NCBI GenBank assembly: GCA_004298075.1
Contig: SCRK01000215.1
Span: forward strand, 1 to 47,489
DNA from: a bacterium
Lineage (GTDB): Bacteria > Omnitrophota > Gorgyraeia > Gygaellales > Profunditerraquicolaceae
Length of the DNA stretch: 47,489 nt
Direction of reading: 5' to 3'
Part shown: in pieces, positions 18,233 through 21,482 of the stretch
Layout of the letters: each line of letters starts with the position of its first letter
Numbering within the stretch: the stretch's first letter is position 1
The notes under the pieces: generated by a model
Seen by the model: only the letters and a program-made list of their open reading frames with translations
The model's database searches: none
Told to the model about the DNA's origin: nothing
Translations under genes and position numbers: made by a program

Positions 18233-18985
18233 TTATCCTCCTATAACCACCTTGCTGTAATGAAGCCGGATAAGCCCGGCAAATTCAAGAACCTTATGCT
18301 TCCTATCAGCTTCGGGAATAATGCTGATCTTTCCGGCTGGAGCATAATTAATCCCCAAGCGCGCGTATTTATCTTCGCCAAAGCGGTGATAGGGCAATAA
18401 GTTTATTCCCTCGGCAGAAATATCCCCGGCTAGCTCTGCGATCTTATGCGCCTGTTTTTCGTCCATGTTATAACCAGGGACAAGGGGTACCCTTAAATAA
18501 ATTTTTGCCTTATCAAGGCTGAGCCTTTTCAAATTTTGGAGTATACCGGAATTTCCGGAACCTGTGTATGTATTATGCAAATCAGGATCGAGATGTTTAA
18601 TATCGTACAGATAATAATCCACCAAACCTTTTACCGCCTCAAAATTACTCCAGGGTACCTCGCCGCAAGTCTCAATAGCTGTCCCAATACCATGACCCCT
18701 ACATTCTTTTAAAAGAACTCCCGCAAATTCCGGCTGAAGTAACGGCTCTCCTCCAGAGAGGGTCAATCCGCCTCCGGAATTCAAGAAATACGGCTTGTCT
18801 TCTAAAAGCCATGGGATAACCTCTTCAATTTCAACTTCACGGATAAATTTGTTATCCGGGATAAAAGACTCAGGGTTACAACACCACGCGCATTTCAGAG
18901 AACAGCCATAAAGGAATAAAACCGATCTGATCCCCAGTCCGTCATGTATCGCGTAACGCTGAAAATTAAATATCTTCCCTCTCAT
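18233..18985 (-). CDS. Glycyl-radical-enzyme activating protein (PflA-type radical SAM activase)
   Basis: Contains [40 protein letters not shown] (CxxxCxxC), [14 protein letters not shown] and VPLVPGYN. I prefer the ATG at 18985, one nt after the GRE stop (TAA-T-ATG). The ORF track extends the frame to 19036, which would overlap the GRE by 50 nt. Confidence 0.85.
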   Translation of the reverse strand: [250 protein letters not shown]

Positions 18986-18986
18986 A

Positions 18987-21482
18987 TTAACAGGCCCTGG
19001 CAATAAAATCATCCTGGATCGGTTTGGACAGGTCAATAAACCGCGCGCTGTAGCCTCCGACCCTCACGATAAGGTCTTTATATAAACCAGGATCACTCTG
19101 TGCCTTCTTTAATTCGTCCCGGTCGACAACAGAATATTGCACGGACATCCCCCCAAGCTCAAAATATGTCCGCAATAACGCCCCCCATTTGATCAGATCA
19201 TCATGCCGGGATACGATATTAAACGGCATAACCTGGTTAAAAACGATACCATTGGGCGCTTTCTGCGTATTTATGTCAGCAGCTGCATTATGCGTGGCAG
19301 TATAGCCTAAAGCTTCGGCGTATTGAGAAGGGGCAACCGAACCCGAAAGCATCTCGCGGGCAAATCTCCCGTCAGGCGTTGCCGATACATCCTCCCCCAA
19401 TACCAAGTATATACCCATTGAAAATAAACCGATCACGAATTTAGCTTCAACATCCCCTCTTTTAATCCTATGCTTTTCATATTCTGAAGAAAAATTATCT
19501 ACAAGCCACTTTGCCCAAAATTGAGCCCTTTTACCCGAAGCTCCATAACGGCTAAGGCTAAGGGATATATTACGCAATCCTTCAAACCCCTTCCAATTTG
19601 CCTCTAACGCCAAGAGTAATTCATTCATTGAGCAGCTCTTCCTTTTGAATACAAGCTCTTCAATTGCCATTAAAGAATCAGCTGCCGTAGCCAGGCCTAC
19701 CCCTACAGCCCCGATCCAGTTATACCGGCAGCCTCCTCCCGCGTAATCAAAGCCGTTACTCCTCGGTCCCGGATGCATAAGGCTTAAATAAGGATTAGTC
19801 AGGGTATCTGAAAAATGCCGCTCTACCAAACTATTCATTAACACATTCATTTCTACGGCATAGCGTAATTGCTTGATGAATGCAGAGCTAAACTCATCCA
19901 TTACCTTAAAAGAATCTGCCTTACCTGAATTTGGCCCTACTTGAGCATTATTCATTGGATTTATGCCGTTATACAAAGTTAACTCAACTACCTTTGCCAA
20001 ATTAAAGAAACCGGCATTATTATGCCCGTTAGTATCAGCGGATACCGGAGAACTATTAGGGTCGGTAATGTTCTCCTGGCAGCCCAAGTCCGCGTAATGC
20101 CTTGCGTCCTCTAAAAGCACTCCCGCGTGCGAAACTAAAGACGGGATTATCACATCATCATTGATAAATTGAGGTAATCCGCTGCCCAGACGCACCACCT
20201 CTAACGCACTATCAACTAAGGCTTGCGGGGTTCCCTTATGGAGCCTTAGCGAAAGATTCGGCTCTTTCAAATGAACATGCGCCTGTGCCTCTAAAAACCT
20301 ATAGGTGAGCTCATTAGTAATATCATTGCCCTTCTCATCTATTCCGCCTAATGTTATTTTATCATTAGTCCTGTCTCCGGCTAAACCCCTTCCTGTTTTT
20401 TCATCCCTTACGGACTGATATTCATAACATTTAAGGAAAAAACATTCTAAAAGCTCCTGCGCCTTTTCTTTTTCTTCAGAAGCCTTTACCCATTTCTTAT
20501 ATAAGGGATAGAGGTAATAATCCATTCTCCCGAGTGAATGGGAAACCCCCGACTCAGTAAGGAAATTGGTCATATGCATAAAATGTATCGCTTGCAAAGC
20601 CTCCCACCAAGATCTGGCGGGGAATTCAGGGACTTTTTTGCATATATCAGCTATAGCCATTAATTCTTTTTTCTTTTCCGGGGCAGCTGAAAGGCTTTTT
20701 TCTTCGTATACTTTAGCGCAGCGCCTGGCATAAAGCATCACCGCCTCCGCACAGATGATCATCGCCTCATACATCTCTAAACGCCGGCTATCTTTTTCTG
20801 ACCCTAAGTTTTTCGCAAGCTTATCCCTCCGGCAGATTATTTCATTTTTTATTTCTTTTAACCCTTTGGTGACCACGCTATTGTAATCCTCTACGGTGTG
20901 CGAAAAACCTTTGCCAAAATTAGTCATAAATACCTGGGCTTTATTAATGAACTCCAACTCTTGGGGATAAGAGGCTTCCATATCTTTATATATATAAGCG
21001 CCTAAATACTTATCCTTCCAGTATGGCAGTATTTCCTCTTCAAGTATTCTTAAATCCTCCTGAGAAATTTCTACGGGCTGGATACCGCGCAGCGGCAGGT
21101 TGCGTAATTGCGTCCCGGGCCTGTTCTTAGAATCGCTCGATAGCCAGCCGGTATAATATTCCGGGTCAATCTCAATAGCCCCGTAGAAAGATATCGCGCT
21201 TCCGGCGATGAGCTGATCTTCAATGACCGGAATAGGAATGTTTTCAAGAACATAATAAAAAGCTTTTGCCTTGCGGATTGCCGCAGGTTCTGCCTCGTTC
21301 TTCCGATATCCGTCTGTAAATAATCTGGCCCGATGAATAGAAATCTCAGGGATCCTGGTTCCCAACAAAAATTTTTTTATCCGCTGAATACGCAGTTCTG
21401 CCTCAGAAGACCATTTAAGCACAAGATTATCCAGGAAATTTTCGCTCATAATATCAACATTACCTTGCTGTGTATCCGCCAT
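18987..21482 (-). CDS. Glycyl radical enzyme, PFL2/glycerol-dehydratase-like (eliminase-type Cys loop)
   Basis: 831 aa. The N-terminal block reads IHRARLFTDGYRKNEAEPAAIRKAKAFYYVLENIPIPVIEDQLIAG. The Cys loop is ADLGCQENITD (Cys with Glu at +2). Also has AGFFNLAKVVELTLYNG and the C-terminal glycine-radical motif DLIVRVGGYSARFIDL. An alternative start is M12 at 21449, which would remove the 23-nt overlap with the upstream SDR. Confidence 0.9.
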   Translation of the reverse strand: MADTQQGNVDIMSENFLDNLVLKWSSEAELRIQRIKKFLLGTRIPEISIHRARLFTDGYRKNEAEPAAIRKAKAFYYVLENIPIPVIEDQLIAGSAISFYGAIEIDPEYYTGWLSSDSKNRPGTQLRNLPLRGIQPVEISQEDLRILEEEILPYWKDKYLGAYIYKDMEASYPQELEFINKAQVFMTNFGKGFSHTVEDYNSVVTKGLKEIKNEIICRRDKLAKNLGSEKDSRRLEMYEAMIICAEAVMLYARRCAKVYEEKSLSAAPEKKKELMAIADICKKVPEFPARSWWEALQAIHFMHMTNFLTESGVSHSLGRMDYYLYPLYKKWVKASEEKEKAQELLECFFLKCYEYQSVRDEKTGRGLAGDRTNDKITLGGIDEKGNDITNELTYRFLEAQAHVHLKEPNLSLRLHKGTPQALVDSALEVVRLGSGLPQFINDDVIIPSLVSHAGVLLEDARHYADLGCQENITDPNSSPVSADTNGHNNAGFFNLAKVVELTLYNGINPMNNAQVGPNSGKADSFKVMDEFSSAFIKQLRYAVEMNVLMNSLVERHFSDTLTNPYLSLMHPGPRSNGFDYAGGGCRYNWIGAVGVGLATAADSLMAIEELVFKRKSCSMNELLLALEANWKGFEGLRNISLSLSRYGASGKRAQFWAKWLVDNFSSEYEKHRIKRGDVEAKFVIGLFSMGIYLVLGEDVSATPDGRFAREMLSGSVAPSQYAEALGYTATHNAAADINTQKAPNGIVFNQVMPFNIVSRHDDLIKWGALLRTYFELGGMSVQYSVVDRDELKKAQSDPGLYKDLIVRVGGYSARFIDLSKPIQDDFIARAC

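Follow-up and report, generated by a model that had tools for sequence, protein, structure and literature searches.

A glycyl radical enzyme conserved among surface-glycan genes points to an undescribed biosynthetic role

The subject of this study is a glycyl radical enzyme (GRE), of an oxygen-sensitive type, encoded on the Omnitrophota contig SCRK01000215.1 (assembly GCA_004298075.1), of which a stretch of 47,489 nt, hereafter the window, was analysed in forward-strand numbering. The window holds about 45 genes, every one of them on the minus strand and most of them overlapping or lying a few bases apart. The GRE gene (18987..21482) encodes 831 amino acids (aa), and its fixed, conserved place in a gene set for an activated, sugar-like surface-glycan unit points to an undescribed biosynthetic job. 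The fold and the predicted chemistry of the enzyme are of familiar kinds; its proposed role, its pocket and its minimal activase are unfamiliar.

The translated open reading frame (ORF) contains IHRARLFTDGYRKNEAEP...VLENIPIPVIEDQLIAG, ADLGCQENITD, AGFFNLAKVVELTLYNG and VRVGGYSARF, the hallmarks by which the original prediction had recognized a GRE, and both expected Pfam domains are significant: PFL-like (PF02901; E=4.4e-151, residues 31-696) and Gly_radical (PF01228; E=5.7e-20, residues 714-816). The protein is a member of the PFL-like branch of the GRE superfamily and, by its motif, a 1,2-eliminase, the C-x-E motif of these enzymes being defined in a recent review (Imrich et al., June 2026, PMC13450708). 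As had also been predicted, its stop codon (TAA, 18989-18987) is followed by one base and then by the ATG (18985) of a PflA-type activase. This GRE-activating radical S-adenosylmethionine (SAM) enzyme (18233..18985; 250 aa) carries the motif CSLKCAWC (CX3CX2C) and passes the TIGR02494 GRE-activase model (245.6 bits against a cut-off of 174) in two stretches that skip approximately profile positions 45-101. By its length, its count of six cysteines and that gap in the profile, it lacks the eight-cysteine ferredoxin-like auxiliary-cluster domain, which has been described as absent only from the activating enzymes of pyruvate formate-lyase (PFL) and ribonucleotide reductase (RNR) (PMC13450708).

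Upstream, the GRE start is overlapped by 23 nt by a classical short-chain dehydrogenase/reductase (SDR; 21460..22221; 253 aa; adh_short_C2, 1.2e-52), whose nearest NCBIfam families, BudC and FabG-like, are matched under their cut-offs. It is preceded by a class I SAM methyltransferase (22218..23006; 262 aa; Methyltransf_11, 1.2e-19), a HisC-like class I/II aminotransferase dependent on pyridoxal phosphate (22990..24108; 372 aa; Aminotran_1_2, 3.7e-34) and, upstream of the latter, a second methyltransferase (24029..25168). The aminotransferase reaches 193.7 bits with the hisC model TIGR01141, under its cut-off of 276; its best match in the PDB is E. coli HisC, and it retains the SFSK lysine and the arginine of the 'LRIT' motif. 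Downstream of the activase lie a NeuA-like cytidylyltransferase, here called CTP#2 (17487..18230; 247 aa; CTP_transf_3, 4.8e-17), a radical SAM/SPASM protein assigned by Pfam (16474..17490; 338 aa), a short GalE/PelX-like NAD-dependent epimerase/reductase (15603..16490; 295 aa; Epimerase, 2e-39; best PDB matches 6WJB and 6WJ9) and a surface-carbohydrate protein of the LIC13510 family (TIGR04326; 13641..15599; 652 aa; 267 bits, cut-off 250). All boundaries among these neighbours of the GRE overlap or leave 1-3 nt, so that the flanking genes listed in the original prediction, together with their same-strand, overlapping arrangement, are borne out by the Pfam assignments and the coordinates.

The remainder of the window, in which ORFs of at least 150 aa were scanned against Pfam, is of the same character. 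It encodes a nonulosonate module composed of NeuB (29520-30536), a PseG-like protein (28490-29533), WbqC, PIG-L and a cytidylyltransferase, a Wzx-like flippase (25162-26700), a large LIC12162-family protein (TIGR04331; 26697-28481) with no Pfam domain, glycosyltransferases of the GT1, GT2 and WecG types, a dTDP-glucose 4,6-dehydratase (405 bits, over the cut-off) and a nucleotidyltransferase. The NeuB, PseG-like, Wzx-like and several glycosyltransferase genes confirm that the GRE lies in a glycan locus. At 17-19 kb upstream of the GRE (38778-41016) are found a PGDH-like D-2-hydroxyacid dehydrogenase (40084..41016; 310 aa; 2-Hacid_dh_C, 7.6e-47; 215 bits with TIGR01327, under its cut-off of 454), a cyclase/arylformamidase-fold hydrolase (39443-40087; Pfam Cyclase) and a HAD-family phosphatase (38778-39437; Pfam HAD_2). 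Pfam and NCBIfam annotation of the window revealed no microcompartment, aldehyde dehydrogenase or transporter genes.

Recurrence of the gene set and boundary of the clade

Homologues of the GRE were divided by their identity to it into three tiers, 58-86% (tier 1, P0002-P0016), 49-52% (tier 2, P0017-P0026) and at most 48% (tier 3), and the context of their loci was tabulated from tblastn searches with the window proteins. Every tier-1 or tier-2 relative on a long enough contig sits in a glycan locus with common partners, which speaks against the chance insertion that the original prediction had allowed for. The order aminotransferase, methyltransferase, SDR, GRE, activase, CTP_transf_3 recurs at 48-78% identity in six loci: one in Geobacter sp. 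DSM 9736, next to flaG, one each in an Omnitrophica metagenome-assembled genome and a Solidesulfovibrio sp., and three on metagenome contigs. As a rule they also carry the radical SAM/SPASM protein, the 295-aa epimerase and the PGDH-like dehydrogenase, and often the HAD phosphatase and the cyclase-fold hydrolase. A metagenome scan contributed the loci L016 (GRE, activase, cytidylyltransferase, radical SAM), L017 (SDR, GRE, activase) and L018, the last representing a 50%-identical sub-clade in which the order is 2-Hacid_dh, Epimerase, GRE, activase, HAD, SDR, CTP_transf_3, among neighbours that include NeuB, NeuC-like, SIS, GmhB-like and split-transketolase genes. The constant partners of the GRE are the SDR, the 2-Hacid_dh protein, the short epimerase, the HAD protein and the PF02348 cytidylyltransferase, the aminotransferase and methyltransferase being usual. 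The activase of L018 (12420-13385) has 321 aa and Fer4 domains; since this sub-clade keeps them, the ferredoxin-like domain seems, from the sequences, to have been lost inside the glycan clade.

Part of this gene set also occurs without a GRE. CTP#2 has many homologues at 45-51% identity, and three sampled loci (L012, 10001-19508; L013, 10001-18976; L014, 10001-19087) contain GRE-less modules with CTP#2, the radical SAM/SPASM protein, a class I/II aminotransferase (31-33%), a conserved protein of approximately 290 aa, the epimerase (52-69%), the 2-Hacid_dh, cyclase and HAD proteins and a LIC13510-like protein of approximately 600 aa, often beside a NeuB/LIC12162 module. This GRE-less module is widespread and uncharacterised in its own right. 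Because the partner genes are thus found without it, the GRE, its activase and the SDR, plus the aminotransferase and methyltransferase, behave as an add-on tailoring cassette to a wider, uncharacterised CMP-dependent glycan module.

In L001-L007 and L015/L017 the gene immediately upstream of the GRE is an orthologue of the SDR (52-78%); orthologues of the methyltransferase at 22218-23006 (53-59%) occur in five of the six tier-1/2a loci, and those of the aminotransferase (53-67%) in five loci. The cytidylyltransferase, one of the recurrent neighbours that the original prediction had proposed to look for in other genomes, has orthologues (58-69%) in all tier-1/2a loci. The radical SAM/SPASM protein (16474-17490) is represented by orthologues (51-65%) in L001, L005, L006, L007 and L016 and by homologues (43-46%) in the GRE-less modules of L012 and L014, and the epimerase by orthologues (50-69%) in GRE loci and GRE-less modules alike. 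Homologues of the PGDH-like dehydrogenase (32-46%) are found in L001, L003, L005, L006, L007, L018 and L012-14; HAD and cyclase homologues adjoin the module in L001, L007, L018 (HAD), L012 and L013, as do distant LIC13510 homologues in L003, L005, L007, L012 and L013.

Tiers 1 and 2 form an exclusive monophyletic clade (26/26) in a neighbour-joining tree built from 114 homologues with glycerol dehydratase (GD) as the root. A 1.84-billion-protein representative library yielded 1,690 GRE clusters (50% identity) at E<=1e-30, among which the glycan clade came down to one representative, P0011; the next matches stood at 45% and 41%, followed by full-length sequences at no more than 38% and a few fragments at 46-48%. 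The sole return of a scan of a genome-contig collection with the GRE protein was a 26%-identical relative. Relatives at or below 48% identity lie in catabolic loci: L008 (8839-17559) encodes a 2-oxoacid dehydrogenase complex, transporters and a sigma-54 activator, L010 (10001-22122) a CUT1 sugar ABC transporter, a second GRE and a GFO_IDH oxidoreductase, and L011 (7226-15615) a ribose-type ABC transporter, an SDR, a zinc-dependent alcohol dehydrogenase, RpiB, DhaK/L and DeoC. Given that relatives of at least 50% identity occur in glycan loci and those of at most 48% in catabolic ones, the glycan association is clade-specific and not due to chance.

The genes of the catabolic loci fit a carbohydrate or polyol as the substrate class of the wider GRE family. 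The 41-48%-identical GREs of L008, L010 and L011 constitute an uncharacterised catabolic family with a GCQEN...DPN loop, a second uncharacterised GRE function; judging from the neighbouring DeoC and DhaK genes, it may be the dehydration of a polyol to a 2-deoxyaldose. Two of the GRE glycan loci, L003 (10661-12681) and L018 (20563-22374), contain thiamine-diphosphate enzymes split into E1/transketolase-like alpha and beta genes, and a comparable E1 pair lies downstream of the catabolic GRE in L008.

The presence of NeuB raises the possibility, which we regard as unlikely, that the GRE tailors the product of the operon's NeuB module, a nonulosonic acid or its CMP ester, for instance by dehydrating the C7-C9 side chain, a terminal diol that resembles glycerol; a nonulosonate side chain was among the targets named in the original prediction. 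In the window and in L018, NeuB, PseG or NeuC and a second cytidylyltransferase all lie within 10 kb, and the GRE-less modules of L012-L014 adjoin NeuB/LIC12162 modules. Against this, NeuB was judged within ±10 kb of the GRE and found there in the window and L018 only; it was not found within that distance in five loci (L001/2, L004-L007) that have the whole partner set, L003, L016 and L017 being too short or truncated at the contig end to be judged. Moreover, the module has a divergent cytidylyltransferase of its own besides the nonulosonate-type one, and for the barrel of a GRE a CMP-nonulosonate would be an unusually bulky substrate, characterised substrates not exceeding a hexitol phosphate (PMC13450708). 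The nonulosonate link is frequent but not obligatory, so that the nonulosonic-acid setting envisaged in the original prediction holds, within 10 kb of the GRE, for the window and L018 and does not extend to L001/2 and L004-L007.

Active site and family placement

The residues of the GRE were mapped by a HMMER alignment to GD (1R8W), from which the pocket was also assigned, and their conservation was read from a MAFFT alignment (fast settings) of the 114 homologues in the three identity tiers. All the catalytic residues of GD are retained: G763 corresponds to G810, C433 to C468, E435 to E470, H164 to H195 and S282 to S314. The radical glycine, G810 within VRVGGYSARF, and the thiyl cysteine, C468 on the Cys loop, are where they had been placed from the motifs and are invariant among the homologues, as is H195 (114/114), while S314 is present in 103 of the 114 and replaced by alanine in the others. 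The Cys loop reads G467-C468-Q469-E470-N471, with the glutamate at +2 from the cysteine as originally noted (C468-Q-E470 on C433/E435), and has a 7-residue insertion relative to GD. In contrast, the distal-pocket residues of GD are all replaced (H281 by V313, Y339 by N373, D447 by N489 and Y640 by F687). These four residues, whose types were checked in the alignment, we take to be the contacts of GD to the C3 hydroxyl of glycerol. Comparison with the GD active site, proposed at the outset as a check, therefore gave a retained catalytic set next to four changed distal contacts.

In GD, Glu435 deprotonates the C1 hydroxyl and His164 protonates the leaving C2 hydroxyl (Imrich et al., June 2026, PMC13450708). 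With those catalytic residues retained and the C3-hydroxyl contacts replaced, the machinery for C-O elimination is present, next to a distal pocket that differs. Among the reactions first considered (dehydration or deoxygenation, C-N cleavage and C-C cleavage), the retained His195, Ser314 and Glu470 favour, as far as alignment can tell, C-O dehydration over the two cleavages.

The GCQEN...DPN loop, H315, N373-D374-K375 and N489 are invariant or nearly so across all three tiers. The GCQEN loop was initially regarded as a possible mark of the glycan role, and we rejected it as a signature of the glycan clade because it is family-wide, being invariant also in the relatives of at most 48% identity from sugar-catabolic loci. 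Together with H315, N373-D374-K375 and N489, the GCQEN...DPN loop apparently marks a wider, uncharacterised GRE family directed at carbohydrates rather than a glycan role. Just eight positions are invariant throughout tiers 1 and 2 yet rare in tier 3. Two of these clade-specific residues adjoin catalytic motifs: K191 precedes His195 by four residues, and D370 precedes N373 by three. Placed in the pocket by this sequence proximity, the two would fit a charged polar ligand. An analogy of K191/H195 to the sulfonate site (Arg/Gln) of IslA/HpsG is not claimed, the alignment of 150 representatives being gappy and containing one Gln-type sequence.

An AlphaFold2 (AF2) model of the GRE, built from 54 homologues (pLDDT 92.7, pTM 0.93), matches 1,2-propanediol dehydratase (PD; 9RCO/5I2G) and GD (1R8W) with TM-scores of 0.90-0.91 at 31-33% identity, followed in rank by HpzG, CutC, HypD, PflD, YbiW and IslA, with PflD and YbiW at 0.87-0.91. 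By sequence, the nearest solved proteins are Roseburia PD 5I2A, the GRM3 PD 9RCO and C. butyricum GD 1R8W (all about E=1e-120), and identity to any solved GRE does not exceed 33%. The protein falls under the cut-off of the PFL2-3 subfamily (TIGR01774; 527.6 against 678.2 bits) and under those of the NCBIfam equivalogs HypD (426.6/1100), HpsG (425.7/1000), HpfG (418.2/1000), CutC (402.7/1050) and PflD (387.2/1109). By these thresholds it is not a member of the GD/PD, CutC, HypD, HpsG/HpfG or PflD/YbiW families, and the position outside every characterised clade on which the original proposal of a new function depended is thereby supported.

GD (C. butyricum 1R8W) and PD (5I2A/5I2G, 9RCO) share with the window enzyme the fold, the glycine motif, the Cys-x-Glu loop, the histidine and serine pair and the adjacent activase gene. 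They differ from it by their 31-33% identity and in the residues H281, Y339, D447 and Y640 of GD, which the GRE has replaced; the GRE in turn has a Cys loop 7 residues longer with invariant QEN..DPN, an activase devoid of the ferredoxin domain, and a place in a glycan-biosynthesis operon, whereas GD and PD belong to fermentative or microcompartment loci. It is hardly credible that a common catabolic dehydratase of glycerol or 1,2-propanediol, or some other known eliminase, reached the operon by chance or stands there through an assembly artefact. PD and GD are indeed the best sequence and structure matches of the GRE, but the gene order recurs in independent genomes and contigs of different phyla, the GRE is translationally coupled to its neighbours, all four C3-hydroxyl contacts of GD are replaced, every curated family cut-off is missed, and the microcompartment, aldehyde dehydrogenase and transporter genes of such loci are missing from the window; together these observations contradict an accidental insertion.

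YbiW and PflD are 1,5-anhydrohexitol-6-phosphate isomerases, and no other characterised PFL-like GRE acts on sugar phosphates (PMC13450708). The comparison with them bears on a further alternative, namely that the GRE, in the manner of YbiW/PflD or HplG, isomerises or opens the ring of a cyclic sugar intermediate with no net loss of water. Isomerases share the CXE motif and act on sugar phosphates (PMC13450708), their structures match the GRE model comparably well, and the wider GRE family appears to be carbohydrate-directed. YbiW and PflD nevertheless serve a catabolic pathway ('anhydroglycolysis') and break a C-O bond of the ring with no dehydration, PD and GD rank first by both sequence and structure, the PflD equivalog is far from reached (387 against 1109 bits), and the histidine and serine pair of the dehydratases is retained. 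The constant SDR fits the reduction of a newly formed carbonyl, though the product of an isomerase would carry one too. On balance we consider an isomerase quite improbable.

Predicted function and competing schemes

Taking the domain identities, the retained catalytic residues, the changed distal pocket and a synteny confined to one clade as the observed basis, we infer the reaction type, the order of steps and the substrate class. The GRE most probably dehydrates a vicinal diol, and would have come to an anaerobic glycan-precursor pathway from the catabolism of sugars or polyols. Our prediction, which we hold to have somewhat better than an even chance of being correct, is that of a biosynthetic C-O eliminase through whose action a CMP-activated glycan unit gains a deoxy or amino-deoxy position. 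The adjacent minimal activase would place the radical on Gly810, and Cys468 would take a hydrogen from the carbinol carbon of a polar, probably anionic, intermediate of the sugar-acid or polyol type. Glu470 would then deprotonate the hydroxyl at that carbon while His195 and Ser314 assist the loss of the neighbouring one, to give a deoxy-carbonyl. This carbonyl could be reduced by the co-transcribed SDR, for a net deoxygenation independent of O2, or alternatively be transaminated by the HisC-like aminotransferase and then methylated. The PGDH-like dehydrogenase and the HAD phosphatase might provide the 2-keto-acid (ulosonic-acid-like) form from a phosphorylated hydroxy-acid, the NeuA-like CTP#2 would convert the 2-keto-acid sugar to its CMP derivative, and the GT-B protein of the LIC13510 family would transfer the activated unit onto the glycan. 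SerA and PdxB are precedents for the oxidation step assigned to the PGDH-like enzyme.

The last two steps draw on the following observations. CTP#2 carries the P-loop of NeuA, GRKGSKGVPNKN, and the acidic, DxD-type motif LDVDD; CTP_transf_3 (PF02348) covers only its N-terminal half, and its sequence matches in the PDB are CMP-NeuAc synthetases only, over residues 3-123. It scores under the PseF model (76.1 against 205.7 bits) and at most 28 bits with the KdsB models, and its C-terminal, sugar-binding half gave no match to NeuA, PseF or KdsB in the PDB or NCBIfam. The LIC13510-family protein, in which Pfam recognises no domain, is modelled by AF2 as a GT-B fold (pLDDT 94.1) and has no match in a PDB sequence search; Foldseek returned weak GT-B matches (TM approximately 0.3) to GT4 enzymes, UDP-GlcNAc 2-epimerases and TagF/TarL. 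On the strength of the model, it is a candidate nucleotide-dependent transferase for moving the activated product.

Several points weigh against the biosynthetic C-O eliminase as formulated here. Several chemically different schemes fit the gene set, and the fate of the carbonyl, reduction or transamination, is read from gene adjacency only. The assignment of K191 and D370 to the pocket comes solely from their sequence proximity to catalytic residues. CXE and the histidine are found also in HypD-type dehydratases, and CXE in the isomerases YbiW and PflD, so that a ring-opening or isomerase reaction would be compatible with the motif. The fold matches of the LIC13510 protein span glycosyltransferases and TagF-like phosphotransferases alike, L018 lacks both the aminotransferase and the methyltransferase, and most GRE glycan loci are metagenomic contigs.

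A different substrate must be weighed at this point. A three-carbon unit (D-glycerate, sn-glycerol-3-phosphate or CDP-glycerol) might be dehydrated to an aldehyde (malonate semialdehyde or 3-phospho-oxypropanal), which reduction by the SDR, or the action of the aminotransferase and methyltransferase to form an (N-methyl)amino-propyl or beta-alanyl group, would prepare for attachment as a phosphodiester or N-acyl decoration, like phosphoethanolamine, phosphocholine or N-glyceroyl groups. The nearest solved enzymes do act on C3 diols, 3-phosphoglycerate could be turned into glycerate through the PGDH-like dehydrogenase and HAD phosphatase, relatives of HisC and CobD handle phosphate esters, Lys191, specific to the clade, is a possible binding residue for a carboxylate or phosphate, and the CDP-alcohol phosphotransferases TagF/TarL are among the weak fold matches of the LIC13510 protein. 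CTP#2, however, is of the NeuA/KdsB type and its PDB matches, the CMP-NeuAc synthetases, act on keto-acid sugars, whose anomeric hydroxyl they activate, rather than on phosphate esters; the longer Cys loop and the motifs rich in Asn, Asp, Lys and His suggest a ligand larger than glycerol; the catabolic relatives accompany sugar transporters and DeoC/DhaK genes; and L018 does without the aminotransferase and the methyltransferase. We therefore judge a C3 substrate to be rather unlikely.

Within the prediction of a C-O eliminase acting on a sugar-like unit, a more specific scheme can be put forward tentatively, its correctness in full being doubtful: the module may provide an anaerobic, aldolase-independent route to a CMP-activated deoxy 2-ulosonic acid ('sialic-acid-like', and methylamino-deoxy in most loci). 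The PGDH-like enzyme would oxidise a phosphorylated aldonic acid at C2 and the GRE would deoxygenate it; subsequently, the SDR or the aminotransferase and methyltransferase would act on the carbonyl, the HAD protein would dephosphorylate, and the NeuA-like enzyme would cytidylylate. In the CMP-Kdo and CMP-sialic acid pathways (KdsC/KdsB and NeuB/NeuA), a 2-keto-acid sugar is likewise activated with the help of a HAD phosphatase and a cytidylyltransferase of PF02348; unlike these pathways, the GRE module has no conserved aldolase of the KdsA/NeuB type and has a PGDH-like dehydrogenase instead. If this route were true, the enzyme would be the first biosynthetic PFL-like GRE and, among radical deoxygenases of glycan precursors, the first to store its radical on the protein.

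Precedents exist for the logic of the proposed reaction. In apramycin biosynthesis, C3' deoxygenation is performed by the radical SAM diol dehydratase AprD4 and the NADPH-dependent reductase AprD3, a radical 1,2-diol dehydration followed by carbonyl reduction that amounts to the net deoxygenation proposed here. AprD4 has no homology to the window enzyme and, unlike a catalytic GRE with its stored radical, spends SAM at each turnover. To our knowledge, the one established anabolic GRE is the class III (anaerobic) RNR, which strips a sugar hydroxyl by thiyl-radical chemistry but reduces with formate or thioredoxin and involves no dehydration. Its activase, like that of the window, is devoid of the ferredoxin domain (PMC13450708); it belongs to the RNR-like and not the PFL-like branch, and has no sequence match to the window GRE.

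All characterised PFL-like GREs act in degradation, their substrates being pyruvate, glycerol, choline, hydroxyproline, sulfonates, aromatic acids, hydrocarbons and anhydro-sugars; the six C-O, one C-N and three C-S eliminases and the three isomerases on record are all catabolic (PMC13450708). That June 2026 review lists no biosynthetic PFL-like GRE, and the words 'glycan', 'polysaccharide' and 'biosynthetic' are absent from it (PMC13450708), in agreement with the initial statement that no characterised GRE works in glycan or nucleotide-sugar biosynthesis. Literature searches pairing GREs with cytidylyltransferase, polysaccharide or O-antigen retrieved nothing relevant, nor did searches for LIC12162 or for nonulosonic acid combined with radical SAM and hydroxyacid dehydrogenase. 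The position outside characterised clades, the changed pocket and the fixation of relatives of at least 50% identity in glycan loci thus support, on comparative grounds, the new GRE function first suggested.

A clade fixed in surface-glycan biosynthesis would extend the PFL-like GREs to anabolism. If the prediction is true, strict anaerobes would have a route to deoxy and amino-deoxy sugar units that requires neither O2 nor SAM per turnover, and an undescribed glycan constituent is predicted on Desulfobacterota, Omnitrophota and related bacteria. A cultured host of the module exists in Geobacter sp. DSM 9736, and candidate catalytic and specificity residues are now defined.

Further features of the operon

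The two cytidylyltransferase modules of the window each adjoin one of the large family proteins, LIC13510 in one case and LIC12162 in the other. Three paralogous radical SAM/SPASM genes (34676-35680, 31645-32664 and 16474-17490) are 27-32% identical to each other's orthologues, and two of them lie directly downstream of a CTP_transf_3 gene, a pairing also seen in the GRE-less modules of L012 and L014. This recurrence suggests that a CMP-linked sugar, or a sugar before its activation, is the target of radical SAM chemistry. The nonulosonate part of the operon further contains a NodU/CmcH-type carbamoyltransferase (35692-37389) and a class III aminotransferase resembling glutamate-1-semialdehyde aminomutase (GntE-like; 33370-34692), a combination that hints at a carbamoylated or unusually aminated sugar.

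A B12-binding radical SAM enzyme (3677-5185) has the Sden_1168 P-methyltransferase as its nearest family (272 bits against a cut-off of 575), and distant homologues (25-29%) of it occur in L001, L005, L006, L007, L014 and L016. A phosphonate pathway was considered and rejected, the P-methyltransferase score being under the cut-off and no PEP mutase being detected by Pfam among window ORFs of at least 150 aa. An odd companion of sugar-biosynthesis genes is a papain-family cysteine protease (Peptidase_C1, 6.6e-20; 43196-43996), located between two NAD-epimerase/dehydratase genes. Finally, the G+C content, 42-45% in the surroundings of the GRE module, falls to approximately 35% at 24000-29000, where the Wzx-like, LIC12162-family and PseG-like genes lie; such a drop is the usual signature of variable, horizontally exchanged, serotype-specific DNA.

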